A stretch of DNA of 63,237 nucleotides, the filler included, from Folioceros fuciformis (taxonomy: Eukaryota), in assembly GCA_049999805.1 (NCBI GenBank). It is 10 parts of 10 records of this genome, joined end to end, with 100 filler letters (N's around TTAATTAATTAA, not from the genome) between each part and the next. Parts side by side here need not be neighbours in the genome. Positions count along the whole stretch, not along the records: positions 1 to 11,883 come from JBNGIO010000972.1; 9 more parts are not named here. One strand, 5' to 3'. This document shows positions 3,187 to 15,086 of this stretch, one piece after another. The position numbers and the translations under genes were made by a program. The notes under the pieces are model-generated. The model saw nothing but the letters and a program-made list of their open reading frames with translations, did not search any database and had not been told where the DNA came from. The stretch's first letter is position 1. The number at the start of each line of letters is the position of its first letter.

Positions 3187-6050
3187 ATGGAGAATGAGGC
3201 TGGTAGGACACTTCATGAAACGCCAAACACTGGAGCTCTTCCACAAGACAAGGATGGCGGTGAACCTGCAACCCCTGCAGCCACAGCCGCGCGCACAGGA
3301 CAGCACCATCACCAGCATGTCGGTCTCCGGGTGAGACGGGCCATTCTGGCAGGACGCCGGGCGGGCCCTAGCACGCCGGTTCCCAGCTGGAAGCTCTATG
3401 AGAATCCATTCTATGACGGTATCGCAGCGGCAGCGGCAGCAGCAGCTGCAAGGCACAAGGGCTTGCACCGCCGTAGTAGTGGGGCAGGATCTGGAGCATC
3501 GTCAGGAGCTCCTATTTCGGCTCGCACTTTGGCTGCAACGCTTTGGGAGTTGCAAGACCTCCCCTCACTAACTGCCGGCAAGAAAAATAGTCCCGTCCCT
3601 GCCATGAGCTCCCATGTACGTCGACCCAGCCCCCTACACGTCAGGCAGGGCCGTGATGGCAGCCCACTTCATGCAATGGGCCATGGCGTCCTGGGAGCTG
3701 AGTCACCCTCACCTTCGAAATCATCCATGCAGCCCTCCAGCAAGGTGCTGTCCACCTTCTTAGTTGTCCTAAGCCCTCTGATGGGTTCTATTCCGATTAC
3801 TCTTGCTTGCACAGCCGGTGGACAAGCATGTCGAAATTTCAGGGTGCTACACGGGTGTTTTTCTTTTACGGAGGAATAGATCTCTGAAGTTTGGTTTGAC
3901 CTTTTTTTTGTTTCTCGTCTTGCAGTTGTCTGAAGCCACCCTAAGGAGTGCGAATTCCAGTAGACAAGCAGCAGCCATGAGGTCGCATGTTCACAGACTT
4001 CTGGAGAAGAGAGAACCTAAGTTATCACCTTGTGTATTATCTCCCACAAATGGCAGCACCTCGCCTATGGTACGCACTGTCTAGAAACGGCGTGTGTTCT
4101 AACTCATCTTACTTCTGAATGTCCACGTTTCCGTTCTGTGTTTCATTCCTCGTACTCTTAAATGCCCTATCCCTTGTGTACGTGTGGGATTCTCAGATCG
4201 AGCCACAAAGACAAGCCGTGTCCCCGCCAGCAGCAGTTGAAAGGAAACTGAAATTTCCTGAAGCGGATCATCCCACAACGTCGAGTGAGCTGTTGAAAGT
4301 TCTGAATCGAATTCGTGATCTGGAAGAGCAACACAATACAAGTACCTCTATGGTCGCTGCTCTTAGGATTGAGGCAGAGCACTCTCGAAGCCGCATTCAG
4401 GAGCTTGAGAAAGCTTTGAAATCCTCGAGAAGGGAGACTGACAGCCTTTTAAAAAAAATCGCAGAAGAGAGGATGCACTGGCAAGCCAAAGAGCAAGATA
4501 GGATCAGGGCTGCTGTTGTGTCGCTTAAGGAACAGGTCGATGAGGAAAGGAAAGGGCGAAGGAGGATGGACATTGTAAATCGGAAAATCGCCAGAGAGCT
4601 TGCAGAATGCAACATGGCTCTAGCTAAAGCTTTACAGGATCTAGACAGAGAACGGAAAGCCCGGGAGCTGATGGAGGACGTTTGCGATGAGCTAGCTCGA
4701 GAGATTGGTGAGGATAAAGCAGAGGTGGAGGAGTTGAGACGTGAATCTGCCAAGGTGCGGGAGGAAGTGGAAGAGGAACGCAAGATGCTGCAGATGGCAG
4801 AGGTGTGGAGAGAAGAGAGGGTCCAAATGAAGCTTGGTGAAGCCAGGCTGGAGCTGGAGGAGAGGAATGATGCGCTAGATCATTTAAGGGGTCAGCTTGA
4901 GGCTTTTCTGAGGTCAAGGAAGGTTTCTTCAGAAGCTGGAGGGCCTTCAACAAACCAAGTGGATGTGGAGGAAGCAGAAAAGCTGAGAGATGCTGTGACA
5001 ATCATACAGCTGCAGGAAACCAAGGCTTTGTCAGGCAGAGGAGACATAGTCGATGACATGGGTTCTCTGGATGACGATGTCCACACCATTGAACTAAGCA
5101 GAGATGGACACGCACAACAGCAAAGGGGTTGGACAGAAAGGCGAGGTGGGCAGCATGAGAGAGAGGTTGGGGGTCAGGCCTTCCAAGGTGCAAGCATGGA
5201 CAGCCGATGGGAGGACGACGATTCTAGCCATGTTAGTGTGGACGACGGCAGTGCTAGAGAATGGATTTATACTGAGAGCGGTGTTATAGAAAGACGTAAT
5301 GGTGTGGAATGGCGTGTGGGAAGTAGAGGCAGCAGAAAGCGGAAAGAGGAGGAAACAGATGCGGAGGGCGAGAGGGAAGAGGGAGACAGGGAGGAGGAAG
5401 AGGGAGACAGGGAGGAAGAGGAGGGAGACAGGGAAGAGGAAGAAGAGGGAGACAGGGAAGAGGAAGAGGGAGACAGGGAGGACGAAGAGGGAGACAGGCG
5501 GGAGGAAGAGGTTGATGGTGAGAACAGTGGTGACGACGATGCTGATGAAGACGATGATGAAGAAAGTCAATGGGAAAGTGCAAGTGAAGAAGATGAAGTG
5601 GACGGTCGTGTGTTCTCAAGGAGGAATGGACGCACTGAAGATCTGTCCACCAGGAGCGCTGACCCTGGACCGAGGAGTGTGACGGACACCACTTTGGAAT
5701 CAAATCCATCGGAGGCCTGGACGATTAATCGGAGTGCTATCATGGACAACTCGTCAAGATTCCAAGACGACGACAGGATGACCTCAAGCCAAATGGATTC
5801 GTCCAGAGAGTTCTTACATCAAGTAGATTCATCCAGGGAGTTTTCTGGCCAGTGTGACTATTCCACAGACTTCGTGACTCCATTCTCGCAGGATGCTTCT
5901 GGAGCTGGCTCAGGGTTTGCGCAGTCCAGCCCAAAGGTGCGATCCGAAGGAACGTGGGAGTCAAGTGACTTCTTGAACTCACAGCAACAGCAACAGCAGC
6001 AGAAAGGGGGCAGGTCCATGAAGGCATTCGTGGAGTGGCCAAAGGGCTAA
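3187..6050 (+). CDS. BRANCHLESS TRICHOME-like (At5g41620-type) long coiled-coil protein; exons about 3187-3744, 3926-4069, 4197-6050
   Basis: Family motifs TPVPSWKL, ISARTLAATLWEL, SSELLKVLNRI, ERKARELMEDVCDELAREIGEDKAEVE, EERKMLQMAEVWREERVQMKL, and C-terminal MKAFVEWPKG. Phase-0 GT-AG introns join the three ORFs in frame. Confidence 0.85.
5370..5510 (+). repeat. Coding minisatellite (about 18-21 bp unit gaggaagagggagacagg) encoding EEEGDR repeats
   Basis: About 6 copies of GDREEE(E) are directly visible. Confidence 0.9.
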
Positions 6051-6508: not shown

Positions 6509-7897
6509 TTACGCTTCGCTGTACACCGCTGCTTGCTCCATGGCAGTCGGCACTTTCCTTTCCAGCTCGGATTCTCCATCTAGCGCCGACTGCCCTTGCA
6601 GAAGAGGATCCGTCGGCAACAGTTGGCACTGCGCATAGTTCTGCAGGAGCTGGTCGGCCAGGACCAAAGCCACCATAGCCTCCACCATGGGCACGGCTCG
6701 GGGCACTACACAGGGGTCGTGTCTCCCCCGCGCCCGCAGCTCTGTTTCTTGCCTGTCTCTGGTCACCGTCTTCTGTGCACGGGTGATGGTGGAAGTCGGC
6801 TTGAAGGCAATCCGCATCACAATCGTCTCGCCGTTGGAAATCCCGCCCTGGATCCCGCCCGACCTGTTAGTCCTCGTCCTGATGTTCCCGCCGGTGTCGA
6901 GATAGAACTCATCATTGTGCTCACTACCCGTGAGCAGTGTGCCGGCAAATCCACTCCCAATCTCAAACCCCTTGGTGGCCGGGAGAGACATCACAGCCTT
7001 GGCCAGCTCCGCCTCCAGCTTATCGAAAACAGGGGACCCTAAACCCCGCGGCACGTTCCGCGCGATGCAGGTCACTACTCCTCCGACAGAGTCCCCCTTC
7101 ACCCGCACCTTGTCGATGGCGCCGATCATCTTCTCAGCGTACCCGGCATCCGGGCACCGGCAGATGTTGCTTTCAATCTGCTCCAGTGTCAGGCTGCTGT
7201 GGTCTACGATCCCTTCGGGAAGCTCCACCTGGTGAACTCTGGACACGTAGGCCAGCACCTCCGTCCCCGTCTGCAGCTTCAGCAACTTCTTGGCGACCGC
7301 TCCGGCGGCCACCCTCCCTATCGTCTCCCTGGCCGAGGACCTTCCCCCACCCTGCACCGCCCGGACACCGTACTTGAAGTCATACGTAGCGTCCGCGTGA
7401 GACGGCCTGTACGCCAGGCTCATCTCGGAGTAATCTCCTCCACGTTGGTCGGTGTTGGGAACCGAGACGGCTATGGGAGTTCCCAGAGTGAGACCGTCCC
7501 CCACTCCGGATAGGATCTTGCACGTATCCGTCTCCTTCCGAGGCGTGGTGATCCGGGATTGCCCCGGCCGCCTCCTGTCCAGCTCCACCTGCATATCCGC
7601 TTCAGAGAGGGGGATCCTGGGCGGGACCCCGTCGATCACACACCCTACCCCACCTCCGTGAGACTCCCCGAACGTCGTCACACGGAAGGCGTTCCCGAAT
7701 GTGTTCCCCACGCCTGCGCGCACCTCCAGCCGCCGCCTGCTGATAGAGAGTCCCGGGAGGGAGAGCCGCTTCGCCATGGTGAGCCACGGGCCCGAGGCCC
7801 GCAAACCCTGGCCTTCCAAGCACAGCCTGAACGAGGGGGAAGAGGAGGATGCTGAGACATCCGCAGCCACTGCCTGACCGGCCACCACAGAGGTCAT
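6509..7897 (-). CDS. aroC: Chorismate synthase, plastid-targeted, intronless CDS (462 aa)
   Basis: [52 protein letters not shown] and RGRHDPCV signatures. Ser/Ala/Arg-rich N-terminal transit peptide from the ATG at 7897. Confidence 0.97.
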
Positions 7898-8352
7898 GCT
7901 GGAGACGCTAACAGCACCACCTACATGTGCTCGATTCTCGAGCAAAACCTGCAGAATGGAAGGAGATTGGCAATGCAGCTGTCAGAAGCGGCAGGAACGG
8001 GTAGAGAAGTATTCGTCGGGAGACACAACTTCCTTCACAATTTGAGGAATTCGTCTTAAGAAGAAGTGGCAGCAGAGGAGACGAGACGAGACGTATCAAA
8101 GATTCCGTGCCTGATTGCTCGCGTGTTGTGTGTGCTTGTCACAGCGACAGCGTGAAGCAATTCCCGACCAGGAATAATTGAAGAGAGAGAGTGGGGAGAG
8201 CCCTGATTGTAGAGAGTGGGGGCAGTAAGTCTGGACCTGGCTCGAGCTTGGGTTTGGTTGACCTGAGAGGGGGTTAAGGAGACCGGAGAACCCGGTTTGG
8301 GAAAAGTTCTGTTCTGCGCTGCGACAGTTGGAGCAGGCTGGCTTATGGATCC

Positions 8353-10322
8353 ATGGACAGCATCGGAAGTATCCTGGTGCGGGAGCTTGGTGACATCAAC
8401 AGGCTGATAGCCGGCACGGAGAAGGAGGTTGCTGAAGCTGTGGAGCAGTCTGACAAATGGCTGCGAGTCAGAGAAGAAGACAAGGATTGGCAGCGGGATC
8501 AGACATTGGCTACCACAAAAATTGCCTTTTATGCGCAAAGAGAGAGGAGCATCAGGAAAAATCTCAAGATTCAGATGAAGATCAAGCGAGTGCTGCTAGA
8601 CCGGTTGACGGAACCAGGTACTTGGTGTGCTGTGAATTGACCTAATTGGGATGTGTGAAGATGGATTTCATCTCATGCCTGCTGTTGCGGCTGTTTGATT
8701 GCAGGCAGGGGCGGGCTTACAGCTTTGCCGACGACGCTGGGTAAGTATCTGCAATGTGGTTCACGCAAGCACGCACGCACGCACTGCTCGCCGGCTTGTG
8801 CACAAATTCCTTTTGACAGCCAACTTTCAAATGAGTAGATGTGGATGTACGGGACCGCAGCAGAGAGCTAGCGGTGGCTTTGATACAACCGTTTCAGGAG
8901 GCACCAGCCACTTCTGCTCAGTTGAAGGCTGCAATGGCAGCAGGGCTGCTGGAAAAGCTGCCTGTTTCAGACAGGCTGTTCCCTATCTTGTGGCTGGATG
9001 ACTGGCAGCTGACTGGCAAGTTTTTCATCCAAAGACGGCAGTATCATGCGGACCGGCTGGAGTTTCTCATGGACGACATCCTGGATGAGCCATGCAGCAA
9101 CAGCGAAGAGAAGGAGGTGATGAACCAGTTTGTGTGGGACTCGTTTTTCTACCGAGTTTGGACCAAGCTGGTGTCTCTGTTGGAGCTAGGGGGCACAGTC
9201 ACTGCCTACCGCAATTTGTCAGATCTGAGGCCCGAGTTCATGCTCTTTGCCTTCAACAGACTTATGGTGAGACTGGAAGAGAGAAGGGCCCCGTCGGACA
9301 TGGACTCTGCCTTGGAGTCACTTACCCAACTCAATGACGTCCTGCCATGCTACCTCGGCCTCATCCCCTGGGTTATTGGAGTGGGTGCTGCTGGCACAAT
9401 GGTGAAGGCATGGGCTTTTGCGAATGGACAGCCACCTTTGCCTCTCTGCGAGCAGATGGATGTTTCTACCTACAGAGGGAAGTTTGAGTGCCTCAAGCTA
9501 TCCATCAACATACTACGTGCAGTCGTCTCCCTCGCGCCCTACTTTCGGACAGTGGAGTTCAAACCCTACAGGCAGGAGCACAGAAAATACGGGCCTCTGA
9601 ACAGCATCGCCAAAACAATAATCGTGGACAACGACAGAGTAAGAAAGATATTGAAGCCCTGGTCTGTGCACGTCAGTGAAGGCTTCACCAAGCTGGAGTA
9701 CGTGAGGCGGGCATACCAGGAAGTCACTGGGAGTGATCACCTGGTGAGAGGAGAATTCAAGGTTCCCAAAATGGACAGGTACCGGATGGATGTATCGCCA
9801 GTGGGGTTCGAAAGGCCTCCTAAAGACGAACAGGAGTTCAAGGACGCCGTGAAGGCTGTGCTCCATGCTCTTACTGCTCTGCACCAGGCAGGCCTCGTGC
9901 ACAGAGACATTCGGTGGAAGAAGGTGTTGCACGTGGAGGGCAAAGGGTGGATCCTGATTGGCTTGGAGACTGTGTGGAAGGCTGGGGATATGCCCCTGTG
10001 CTGGCTCCCAGGTTGGAATGATCATGTTCTGGAAGAAGACAGGTGGACTATGGGAGGCCAGATGCTAGAGGAAGGTAAGTTCACGGCCAAGTCCGACCTG
10101 TGCTTGCTTGGGAAGCTATTCGACGGATTCAGAAAGCCGTGGCCATACGGTTTCAAGCTCCCGGACTCGAGCTTCCAATATCAGGAACAATTGCTTCACA
10201 AGAAATTCGCAGATGCCGAAAATGCTCTTCAAACCTGGTGCAATATCAACACCTGGTATAAACCTAAACATGTTCCCAAGCCGGAGGGAGGTTCCCATCC
10301 TCTACCCATACTACTGAGGTGA
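8353..10322 (+). CDS. Crinkler (CRN/CR-effector)-like protein: helical header + REase-like domain + kinase-like domain; exons 8353-8617, 8705-8740, 8839-10322 (594 aa)
   Basis: RPEF..LMVRLEER (REase-like), IPWVIGVGAAG, ALHQAGLVHRDIRWKKV..WILIGLE and KSDLCLLGKL (CR-kinase-like). Two phase-1 GT-AG introns link the 88-aa helical ORF to the 493-aa ORF in frame. Confidence 0.75.
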
Positions 10323-10627: not shown

Positions 10628-11414
10628 TCAAGTGGTGACTAATCCGGAAACGGTGCCCAGTAGGAACCAGAGTGCCAAGAGAGACAACAAGGCGAACCAG
10701 CCGAACAGAAAGGACCAGCCTGCCAAGGCAAGACCAAGACACATGACCAGGACGACAGGACCGAAGGCTCTCACAACAGCCATGGAATTCACCCATCTAC
10801 CCTGCAACAGAACCAGGATTGCGATGTGAACCACATTCCATTTGGTAGACCCTCCGTAAGCGATTCTGTTAAGAAAGTAGGCGACAAAAGAGTGGCAATT
10901 GCATGTGAAAAAATTGTAGGAGTTATGCTGGTAGTGTTGGGTCGCAATGCGGAGGCCATCGTCCCAGGAGAGGGCGGCCGTCCCCAGCCCCGCGTGCGCC
11001 CCGGCAGATTTGCACTTGTGGGCTGACATGTTAGCGGGGAAGCAGCACTGTTGGCATCACAAGCAGGCCCAGAAACAAACCCAACACCGCGTCAGCGAGG
11101 CAGGCCTTGGAAGCCCGCTGCATGCACAGCCAAAGCCAACAAAAGCCATCCCTTACCTTGTCCGGATTCAGCCGCACGTATCTGGCCGCAGGGCCGAAGG
11201 TCAGAGTACCGATGTTGACGAAGTAGGGGCCCGCGAAGTCGCGGACGATGCCGTCCTCGCCGCACACGCCCACATGGCCCAGGATGGGACTCAGCCATGA
11301 CACGATCGGCAGTGGCGTCCACACCAGGCAGCAGGGGAATCGGGCCTTGCCAGCATCAATTGGCGCCTCACAGAGTGTCCCCCCGCCTGGCCCTGGCCAG
11401 GACTCTTCGTCCAT
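10628..11414 (-). CDS. RTE1: REVERSION-TO-ETHYLENE SENSITIVITY1-like / TMEM222 family; exons 11414-11157 and 11047-10628
   Basis: RFPCCLVWTPLPIVSWLSPILGHVG, DFAGPYFV and YNFFTCNCHSFVA motifs, C-terminal TM helices, one phase-0 GT-AG intron. Confidence 0.93.
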
Positions 11415-11983: not shown

Positions 11984-13325
11984 CACCGAAGGGGTGCAGG
12001 AGGTGGACCTACCCGGGCTGACTGCTGCGAGGGTGCAAGCCCAAGCAGACCTCCTGGATCAGGCTGCTAGGGCCCTGACCTGGTTAAGTGTACAAGCGGA
12101 GCGAGAGGCCGAGGCTTGGGGAAAGGAGGAGAAGGCTTGTGAGCGAGAGGCTGAAGCAAGGAGGCAACTGGCGGAGTCGAAGACGGCGCGGCAACTGCTG
12201 GAGGAGAAGCAGCTGGTCCTGGACAGGGAGAAGGATCAAGCCGAGGAAGAAGCGCACGAGGCGAGGGCTGAAGTGCAGGCGCTGAAAGAGCAAGAGGGGA
12301 CCCTGCTAGCTCAGGTGAGGGAGGCTCACGAGACTAACCTGGAGATGCAACAGGAAATGGCCAGGGTACAGGAGATGAAGATAGCCGTTGTGGAGCAGGC
12401 TCACAAGTTGGCTGACAGATACAAGCGGGAGCGGGATGAGGCCAGAGAGAGAGTGAAGGGGAAGAGCAAGGCTGGGCGTCCGAGTCAGTCGGCGACCCTG
12501 GTAGCAGAAGGGGCTACCGGTAGCCGAACCAGGGGAACGGTAGTCCCCTCGACTACCGGTAGTCTGGTAGTCCACGGGACTACCGAAAGTCGGGTAGCCG
12601 ACGGGGCTACCGGCAGCCCAGCAAGGCCTAGGATAGCTGAAGAACCAACCCTGGAAACGAAGGAGGAAGGAGTAGGGGTGCCTGCCCCTAGGCACTCTAG
12701 GAGGGTGACCTGTACCAGGAGGATAGAGCCGGAGGAGGCAACAGCTGGGAAGGCAGAGAACCTTCAGGTACCCCAGCTGGAGGGGGAGCAGGCAACCCGA
12801 GGTAGCCCAAGGGAGGACGGGGTAAGCACCTCTGTTATGGCAGAAGGTCGGATTGTGCTGCAGTATGAGGAGGAGGCCTCCTATGTGTCAGGCCTGTATG
12901 TAGAAGGGGCCAGGGTTCTGAAGCTGTTTCTGTATGTACGTATGGGCACACGAGGGACGTGGGGCTACGGCCTACAGTTGAGGACGCGCCTGAGACTCTA
13001 CCACTACAGCTGGTGGGTGATAGGACTGCCCCACTGCTATGCGGAGGCAGTTCTGGAGGAACTGACGGAAGAGGAGGCCCAGCGCTGGGTAGAACGGGGG
13101 CCTGTGGTTGTCCTCAGCAACCAGAGAAGGAGGAGGAGGGGTGGACCACAGCGGCGGGACCCACCTGTGGCGCCAGCCAGGTCCAGCAGCAGTAGCAGTG
13201 ATGTGGAGATCCTCTGGGAGGATCTGCCGAACCAACGGAGGGGCAGAAGAGCGAGAGGAGGAGCAGCAAGGGGTGACGCGCGAACGCTAGGAGGAAGCCG
13301 CCAGTGGCGTGGGAAAGGGCGATAG
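11984..13325 (+). CDS. 5'-truncated intronless ORF of unknown function (coiled coil, V-x-x-G-x-T-G-S repeats, aromatic-rich domain, Arg-rich tail), probably a retroelement accessory ORF
   Basis: 443-codon open frame from the contig edge with an E/A/Q/R heptad-like N-terminal part. No family recognised; the TE origin is inference. Confidence 0.45.
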
Positions 13326-15086
13326 TAAATGTAGGCTAGAATACGATTTTTTTAGCGTGCTTTGTTTGGACCTAAGTCGCTCAGAATTTAAGATCGCAGC
13401 CCCCTTGCCTGACAGACTTTATGGTGGAAAAAAACCGCCATCACCGTGTACAAGAGGCTGGATTGAAGGCCTAAGGAATCAGCAAGAACCAGCCGAACAG
13501 TCGACCTTGCAGGGACCTAGCGATGGCCGTTGCTGGACAGGAGGTCTAGGCAAGCGAGCGCACGTAGCAACCTGGGGTGCGGGTGTAGGTGGTGGGCACT
13601 CCGTGATCAAGTCCGGGGACGAATCGGGAGGAGGAGCCTCGCTGAGTGGGAGAGAAGCTCCCCAGCTATCCTCGAGGTGGTCACGTGGGGTGGTGCGGGT
13701 GTCGGAGCCGAATCCGCAAGTTCGGAGTGGAAGGGACTCCTCTTCCCTTAGCCCCGGTACCTCACCATTCCTCAACGTTAATAGGAGCCCAGGAGAGGGC
13801 ATCGCTAAGAAAGAAGACTGAAGAACCGGAGAAAGGAGAGTGTGGGAGTGCACGTGTGTGAGAAGGAGGAGGAGCGAGTGGCCGAGTAGTGGGTAAGAGC
13901 GAATGCGAAAAGAAAGCCAGAAGGAGTGGAGCAGGGAGTGAAGCGGAGTGGAAGTGATTCGACGACTGTTTAGATGGGCAGAATGTATACAGCGAATTGG
14001 TGAGTGGGTTAAGAGAGAATAAAGCTGGGGAAACCCCGGAGGCGAGGTGGCTAATGTGTGTGGGGTGCAACGAGACGTGGTGAGTATGTGTGACTGATCG
14101 CGATGAGACTGGAGAGGCTGTGAAGAAGCTGAATTGAGACCGTAGGGGGTGTATCTAAGGTGTGAGATCATGCAGGTGGAAGGCGTCCAATAAATTGCTG
14201 CTGTTCAAGTGTGTGTGCGCTTGTTTCTGAGATGAGTGAGGCGGTTTTGTGGTGAACCAAGGAAGGGAAGCGCCAAAGGGGATGCGCAGGCAGGAGGTAA
14301 TCAGTCGGGTAGGAACGACCCGGTGGGAGAGAAAACCCNNNNNNNNNNNNNNNNNNNNNNNNNNNNNNNNNNNNNNNNNNNNTTAATTAATTAANNNNNN
14401 NNNNNNNNNNNNNNNNNNNNNNNNNNNNNNNNNNNNNNTGCGAACAAGTGTGCTGCGATCAAGAGAAGCAAGAGCAGCCTGGTTGCCAATGGCCTGCAGA
14501 AGAAGGATCCGGAGCTGCAAGTGCCCGGGGCTGCAGTTTGGGAGAACTGATCCATTGTCGATTCGCACTTGCAGATTGATTCACAGCAGTTCAGAACACA
14601 ATCATGCACTGCGGTCGTCCACTGCTTCGAACTGCGCTGGAAGACACAAGAGCATGGAGGGAACAGGGATGAAAGCAGAAGCTTGGTAGGAAGGAAAGAT
14701 GGCTTTCCAATTGGGATGGGAAGATTGGCAGGATTGAAGACTGAGGCCTGGGAAGACTGCTGCTTCGTGATTGCCGCTGCTTGGGAGCTTGCCATGCCGG
14801 TTTTATAAGCACCAGAGGTGGTGGGACCTTCAGGTGCCCGGCAGGATCGAAAGTCGGTTTGAGTGTCCTCAACGTGTGCGGCATTGCCAATAGCAGTGTA
14901 CTGTTGGGGGAGGATTCCAGTCAAAAGAAAAAATAATAGTCGCACGCAAGGGGCACGCGGACACACCTGATGCTCTTTCCCACCATCGTGCTGTAGTTTG
15001 CCATTTAATTTTCACTTTTGTTGTCGGCCGACCTCCTGGCTTGAGCTGTGATGCGGTCGACTGTACACCGGCCTTGACACACAGGG

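Follow-up and report, generated by a model that had tools for sequence, protein, structure and literature searches.

A conserved and transcribed Crinkler-type nuclease–kinase gene of Folioceros fuciformis that probably encodes a pseudokinase

We analysed a stretch of 63,237 nucleotides from the Folioceros fuciformis genome assembly GCA_049999805.1 (the window), which consists of ten parts joined with filler letters. The gene studied here lies on the plus strand at positions 8353 to 10322, within the part derived from record JBNGIO010000972.1. A preliminary description had presented it as an intact spliced Crinkler-type gene for a restriction endonuclease (REase) and a kinase with all four catalytic positions substituted. 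Our analysis indicates that it is probably a conserved, transcribed member of the Crinkler/RHS-type (CR) family in which a REase-like domain is followed by a pseudokinase, such that Mg-ATP phosphotransfer would have been lost, the kinase C-lobe would serve in binding or allostery, and the nuclease would be weakened or changed. The parts of the gene are as follows, with residues numbered along the protein encoded by exon 3.

8285..8352, plus strand: 5' untranslated region (the spliced X3 contig starts at 8285)
8353..8617, plus strand: exon 1, encoding an 88-amino-acid header (ATG at 8353, 88 codons; no recognisable family)
8618..8704, plus strand: intron 1, 87 nucleotides, GT..AG (confirmed; skipped in the X3 and X4 contigs)
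8705..8740, plus strand: proposed exon 2, 36 nucleotides, 12 codons, in phase
8741..8838, plus strand: proposed intron 2, 98 nucleotides, GTAAGT..TAG (kept in all three RNA-like assemblies)
8839..10322, plus strand: exon 3, encoding the 493-amino-acid REase-like and kinase-like body, with the stop codon
9114..9455, plus strand: REase-like core, residues 92 to 205 approximately (predicted structure and VIA-align)
9561..10256, plus strand: kinase-like domain, residues 241 to 472 approximately (Foldseek and column counts)
10283..10319, plus strand: C-terminal tail, frame-shifted compared with relatives (4-nucleotide length difference; predicted local distance difference test (pLDDT) below 50)

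The four altered motifs are present as claimed. The nuclease motif reads RPEF (gag at 9234-9236, E132) and LEER (aga at 9282-9284, R148), the kinase motifs read HRDIRWKK (aag at 9921-9923, K361) and LIGLE (ggc at 9960-9962, G374), and each of the four changed codons is one base away from the family consensus residue. The frequency of these residues was determined from 152 proteins (160 domain rows) aligned to the family profile. Position 361 is asparagine in 149 of 151 rows, with lysine found only in the query and in its nearest relative, P0003. The DFG-equivalent position 374 is aspartate in 138 of 141 rows, with glycine in the query, P0003 and P0008. Both metal-binding residues of the kinase are lost, as had been proposed, and the losses are near-unique (N361K in 2/151 rows and D374G in 3/141). 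Position 132 is aspartate in 104 of 112 rows and glutamate only in the query and P0003. Position 148 is lysine in 97 of 117 rows and arginine in nine, including members with otherwise canonical motifs (e.g., P0117).

Other catalytic residues are kept, namely E146 (113/117 rows; 9276-9278), K269 (127/132; 9645-9647) and H354-R355-D356 (9900-9908; H354 and D356 in 151/151). The four substitutions are real, but the wording that all four catalytic positions are substituted is too strong, given that E146, K269 and the HRD aspartate D356 remain. A kinase fold that lacks the catalytic-loop asparagine and the DFG-equivalent aspartate, with the lysine and the HRD aspartate present, makes the assignment of the protein as a pseudokinase well supported at the level of its residues. 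The suggestion of a double pseudoenzyme holds for this half only. The PD..(D/E)xK triad of the nuclease is not intact (P131-E132 .. E146-E147-R148), but a pseudonuclease is unsupported because D132E and K148R are charge-conserving and R148 is found repeatedly among family members (9/117 rows).

The gene belongs to the Crinkler/CR REase and kinase family, in agreement with the preliminary description, as indicated by its homology to carriers of the Crinkler N-domain (PF20147), its kinase fold and its REase-like fold. No Pfam model reached its gathering cut-off in the query, the sole match being Pkinase (19.3 bits against a cut-off of 31.7, residues 329-364), and PF17667 had no match. An exhaustive phmmer search retrieved 440 eukaryotic family representatives at E ≤ 1e-3, 75 of them at E ≤ 1e-10 and five at E ≤ 1e-30. 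The nearest relative, P0003 (492 amino acids), aligns with 96% of the query at 65% identity, and is followed by two Selaginella moellendorffii proteins with 36% and 30% identity. An alignment of 65 proteins, the query included, gave the consensus RPD..(K/R)GEEK, a VxK lysine, VHRDxRWPN and LIDLE, showing that the family motifs assumed beforehand (RPD...GEEK, VHRDxRWPN and LIDLE) were correct. At E ≤ 0.001, 57 of these 65 proteins match Pkinase and 18 match PF17667 (Pkinase_fungal). Two relatives carry the Crinkler N-domain: P0129 (query match E 8.9e-9), at E 2.4e-16, and P0133 (query match E 1.2e-8), at 5.1e-18. In both proteins the Crinkler domain ends in HVLVQLP or HVIVVVP and is followed by RPD..GEEK and HxDIRWxN. 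Because of this homology to P0129 and P0133, we regard the body as a homologue of the Crinkler/CR REase and kinase C-terminus. PF20147 was detected in 2 of 24 proteins in two scans and in none of the 65 in the aligned set.

A profile search through a word index yielded P0003, the Selaginella proteins and otherwise only bacterial kinases of a generic kind; phylum-level leads from the Atlas pointed to relatives in Chlorophyta, Streptophyta, Mucoromycota, Haptophyta, Rotifera and Basidiomycota. A second copy of the family was not found within the window by tblastn. In a phylogeny reconstructed with FastTree, the query and P0003 share a long stem (0.91) with short tips (0.30 and 0.37) and group with the Selaginella proteins and three others with a Shimodaira–Hasegawa-like support of 99. 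This tree has many long branches and we draw from it no conclusion on a donor or on horizontal gene transfer.

Structure prediction agreed with the two proposed folds. The AlphaFold2 model of the 493-amino-acid body, built from the 65-row alignment, has a pLDDT of 90.0 and a predicted template modelling score (pTM) of 0.86, with disorder restricted to residues 473-493. The C-terminal half has a kinase fold, as had been predicted: a Foldseek search against the PDB gave at least 500 matches at E ≤ 0.001, those listed all being kinase-fold proteins, with PknG as the top match of the body (E 8e-7). Residues 2-240, modelled alone (pLDDT 93.1), were compared with known structures in an exhaustive VIA-align search. 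The best row was a mitoribosomal protein (Z 8.4), followed closely by BpuSI (Z 8.3, 149 residues aligned, root-mean-square deviation 4.0), and values of 7 to 8 are graded as middling by the tool. Nine of the top 12 rows have titles that denote restriction endonucleases or proteins with a REase fold (Z 5.3-8.3); among them are DrdV (Z 6.9), EcoR124I HsdR and a putative REase-domain protein (both Z 6.5), EcoRI and SgrAI (both Z 6.0) and NgoMIV (Z 5.3).

The predicted models (pLDDT 90-93) contain an alpha-beta-beta-beta-alpha-beta core, in the order helix, three strands, helix, two strands. In the core sheet, strand two (132-137) begins with P131-E132 and strand three (140-148) contains E146 and R148. 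The REase fold ahead of the kinase, also part of the initial proposal, is supported because of these VIA-align matches and because the motif positions sit where a REase core would be expected to have them. We therefore assign the N-terminal half, with moderate confidence and on predicted models, to a restriction-endonuclease-like core. A homodimer prediction for the 493-amino-acid body had a score of 0.00 and a mark of 0.32 and was used neither way.

The sequence has been retained rather than left to decay, as the preliminary description had suggested: P0003 is intact and carries all four changes, spliced RNA is present in three species, and 9 of 12 listed differences in exon 1 are synonymous. 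Identity to P0003 is highest in the kinase C-lobe (80%), intermediate in the N-lobe (64%) and the REase core (55%), and lowest in the tail (48%). Contigs from two further organisms, B and C, are about 6-7% divergent from the window (87 and 110 changed letters, respectively). Organism B has no insertion or deletion (indel) in 8839-10229, and the only indel of organism C in exon 3 is one of 4 nucleotides at 10283. At the start of exon 3, both of the two listed differences are synonymous. In exon 1, where 12 of the 16 differences are listed for X4, the proportion of synonymous differences to organisms B and C (9/12) exceeds the 22% expected (P = 1.4e-4); the non-synonymous ones are V30A, W46L and R65K. 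This excess indicates that exon 1 is under purifying selection. Synonymous scoring draws on the 40 differences listed out of 219, and within that scope the pattern of substitutions argues against a decaying pseudogene.

The C-terminal tail has diverged in this species. Four nucleotides of the window are missing from organism B at 10286 and from organism C at 10283, and the last 11 or so codons are shifted here. In the alternative frame, the tail would end in ...EVPILYPYY, which resembles the P0003 C-terminus (...PPILYPY), so the four extra bases have put the conserved C-terminal motif out of frame. The tail sequence is the same in the window and in the independent X3 contig. At a separate site in the kinase domain (9776-9789), two contigs of the DNA run X1 meet with a 14-base overlap, one of them with a loose end of 27 bases that does not match the window. 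The meeting point could be a branch in the assembly graph, for example an insertion allele or a repeat edge.

RNA-derived spliced contigs span the gene in three related species (runs X3, X4 and X5); the RNA nature of these runs rests on the spliced joints in their contigs. X3 comes from the same organism and is identical in sequence to the window. Its contig begins at 8285, skips 8618-8704 with GT..AG ends, then reads without a break from 8702 into the convergent gene downstream, where it skips the minus-strand intron of that gene (11048-11156). The proposed junction 8617/8705 is borne out by the 87-nucleotide GT..AG skip in the X3 and X4 contigs, which is absent from the DNA run X1. This shows that the contigs are spliced RNA and that intron 1 is real.

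The proposed junction 8740/8839 was not recovered: it appears in none of the three RNA-like assemblies, the X3, X4 and X5 contigs all reading straight through 8741-8838. Joined in silico, the three exons are in phase as described (1785 nucleotides, 594 codons, with the sole stop at the end), and both proposed introns have GT..AG ends (donors CAG|GTACTT and TGG|GTAAGT, acceptors TTGCAG| and GAGTAG|, for introns 1 and 2, respectively). The description of an intact spliced 594-amino-acid gene is not supported by the RNA contigs, since intron 2 is retained in three of three assemblies, and for the same reason the fusion of header and enzyme is unproven. The fully spliced form may still occur because contigs drop rare variants, and a header–body fusion protein would presumably be produced from it. 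An alternative acceptor at 8819 was ruled out as it is out of frame. Read-through of the 98-nucleotide segment as coding sequence was ruled out for organisms B and C, since their indels (+8 and -2 in B, -4 in C), which are not multiples of three and all lie inside the intron, leave the two frames apart.

Whether header and body are made as separate products concerns the gene model only and is weighed apart from the mechanism. In such a model, which we consider possible but doubtful, the dominant transcript would give a 132-amino-acid peptide, and the body would be translated separately, by re-initiation or from a non-AUG start, or made only when splicing is induced (regulated intron retention). 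It is favoured by the three contigs that span 8741-8838, in which translation from the ATG at 8353 yields only a 132-amino-acid product ending at the TAG at 8836-8838, by the methionine that P0003 has where the window has GTG (8841), and by the lack of any listed difference over 8702-8768 in two species that are about 6% divergent elsewhere. Against it, upstream extension of the exon-3 frame is blocked because of the in-frame stop TGA at 8832-8834, and the earliest in-frame ATG is Met32; yet residues 2-31, which are unreachable from any ATG without the splice, show roughly the same conservation with P0003 as the whole protein. A true intron 2 that is inefficiently spliced or regulated is further suggested by its intact acceptor TAG and strong GTAAGT donor, by the confinement of the B and C indels to the intron, and by an exon 2 that has no change to organisms B and C among the differences listed.

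Two sequence features were noted around these junctions. The stretch 8702-8768 without listed substitutions comprises exon 2 and the first 28 intron bases and may be a splicing-control element. Beyond 8768 lies a (GCAC)n-like stretch of variable length (+8 in B and -4 in C).

The header itself has no recognisable relatives. Its 88 amino acids had no Pfam match below E 0.068 (chance level) and a best Atlas score of 0.82, and a Pfam scan and motif inspection of the gene found no PF20147 match and no LFLAK or HVLVxxP motif. What lies upstream of the body is an unrelated 88-amino-acid coding exon, whose junction to the body is absent from the assembled RNA contigs. An additional ATG occurs at 8345, 8 bases ahead of the header ATG and in another frame; it opens an upstream open reading frame of about 20 codons that ends in TGA (8345-8407) and overlaps the start of the header reading frame.

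These results are consistent with the following series of events. Both Mg-binding residues of the kinase would have been replaced ahead of the split from the P0003 lineage, the catalytic-loop asparagine by lysine and the DFG-equivalent aspartate by glycine, and the nuclease motif would have changed from PD..ExK to PE..ExR over the same period. Both folds, the beta3 lysine and the HRD aspartate would have been retained, but normal Mg-ATP phosphotransfer would be impossible. In the resulting pseudokinase, the highly conserved C-lobe may provide a surface for binding or regulating either partner proteins or the REase-like domain to which it is attached. The nuclease domain would be weakened at best. 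The ubiquitin-like Crinkler header would have been replaced by the unrelated 88-amino-acid coding exon, linked to the body only through removal of the 98-nucleotide intron that is retained in the assembled RNA forms.

Several observations weigh against this interpretation. Loss of kinase activity is inferred from sequence alone, and an unusual metal-independent activity is possible because neither K269 nor the HRD aspartate has been lost. The nuclease could also be functional, given the charge-conserving D132E and K148R and the nine of 117 rows with R148. The REase fold matches have Z values in the range that the tool grades as middling, and Foldseek found no match for the N-terminal domain at E ≤ 0.001. 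The exon 2/exon 3 junction occurs in none of the three RNA-like assemblies, whose contigs drop rare variants, and without that splice the body has no ATG ahead of Met32. The selection scoring draws on the 40 differences listed out of 219, with two at the start of exon 3, and compared with its relatives this species has a frame shift in the C-terminal tail.

Three other explanations of the substitutions were considered. That the gene is a decaying pseudogene whose substitutions are neutral damage is highly improbable. Such decay would account for four functional positions altered by one base each, for the frame-shifted tail in this species and for the retention of intron 2, but the reading frames of the query and P0003 are intact (493 and 492 amino acids) with the same four changes at 35% protein divergence. 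Conservation between them is also uneven, with its peak of 80% in the kinase C-lobe, exon 1 shows an excess of synonymous differences (P = 1.4e-4), and transcripts of the gene are present in three species. A working enzyme pair is unlikely, although less so than decay. This would combine an atypical kinase without its asparagine and aspartate ligands, in which Lys361 perhaps replaces the cation, with a PE..ExR nuclease that still cuts. Some kinases without these two residues are active without Mg, which counts in its favour, as does the retention of the beta3 lysine (Lys269) and HRD Asp356. The catalytic loop and the segment that follows are the most conserved part of the protein (80% identity), charge is preserved in the nuclease by both D to E and K to R, and some members that are otherwise canonical, such as P0117, also have R148. 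Nevertheless, the near-invariance of N361 (149/151) and D374 (138/141) argues that these residues were needed for the ancestral activity, and both ligands were lost together only in the clade of the query and P0003.

The remaining explanation, which we regard as very unlikely, is that the plant has domesticated a toxin module as a catalytically silent guard, which would pair with active REase-kinase Crinklers from oomycete or fungal pathogens and in this way trap, destabilise or report them; splicing of the retained intron would then switch on synthesis of the full-length protein. The guard or decoy idea has an experimental precedent in the family, since kinase-dead CRN8 dimerises with wild-type CRN8, dominantly suppresses it and lowers infection (PMC3426532). 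We favour the REase-pseudokinase interpretation, in which loss of kinase activity and a non-catalytic function would follow from the pattern of substituted and retained residues.

CR REase-kinase modules and their occurrence in land plants are already known. A review (PMC5289972) puts the REase and kinase type at about one-sixth of CR C-termini, places it also in land plants and notes that headers of CR proteins can be alpha-helical. Crinkler/CR effectors such as Phytophthora infestans CRN8 (D2), with which the query was compared through published description only, likewise have a REase-like domain followed by an RD-type kinase and share the motifs HRD(I/V)RW and L-I-x-(L/F)-E. In contrast to them, the query has no Crinkler or ubiquitin-like header, has both the kinase asparagine and aspartate replaced, has a PE..ExR motif, and is a host plant gene located between housekeeping genes. 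The closest named relatives, Selaginella LOC9650052 and SELMODRAFT_407174 ("fungal-type protein kinase"), share the domain order of the query and belong to its clade. Unlike the query, these homologues keep HRDIRWKN and LIDLE, and P0005 also keeps PD..EEK; P0005 reaches the PF17667 cut-off (24.5 against 24.1 bits), whereas the query has no match to that model. Pseudokinases such as Toxoplasma bradyzoite pseudokinase 1 (PDB 6m7z) resemble the query in combining a kinase fold without metal ligands with a conserved C-lobe. This protein was the best sequence match among solved structures (E 0.0012, residues 340-429), but the match is weak and local, no common descent is evident beyond the kinase superfamily, and the query is fused to a REase-like domain.

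A plant Crinkler-type pseudokinase was not found in full-text literature searches, although the survey of Zhang et al. 2016 may list inactive versions. Nor did these searches bring up a conserved, transcribed plant lineage that has lost both kinase metal ligands and that combines a header exon of non-Crinkler type with a linking intron that is retained. The gene offers a testable case of a detoxified effector module retained for a non-catalytic role, and could help to explain the regulation of modules of this kind and to establish whether they are reused by hosts for defence.

The gene is flanked by two genes on the opposite strand.

6509-7981, minus strand: chorismate synthase, one uninterrupted 490-codon frame without intron, upstream of the gene
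10628-11056 and beyond (10628-11200), minus strand: convergent neighbour gene, with an intron at 11048-11156 (CT..AC on the plus strand)

The chorismate synthase has a transit-peptide-like (plastid-type) N-terminus and is transcribed in X3, X4 and X5. Its closest named matches are from liverworts (Riccia 78-79%, Marchantia 82% and Calypogeia 78-79%), in keeping with a host that is a land plant and probably a bryophyte. On the other side, the RNA contigs fuse the convergent neighbour with the REase-kinase gene, meaning that the two transcripts have overlapping or abutting 3' ends, and the neighbour is likewise joined to the gene in the contigs of organisms B and C. In the composition profile of the window, the segments 4001-6000 and 12001-14000 are strongly skewed (GC skew 0.27-0.28, AT skew 0.23-0.25).

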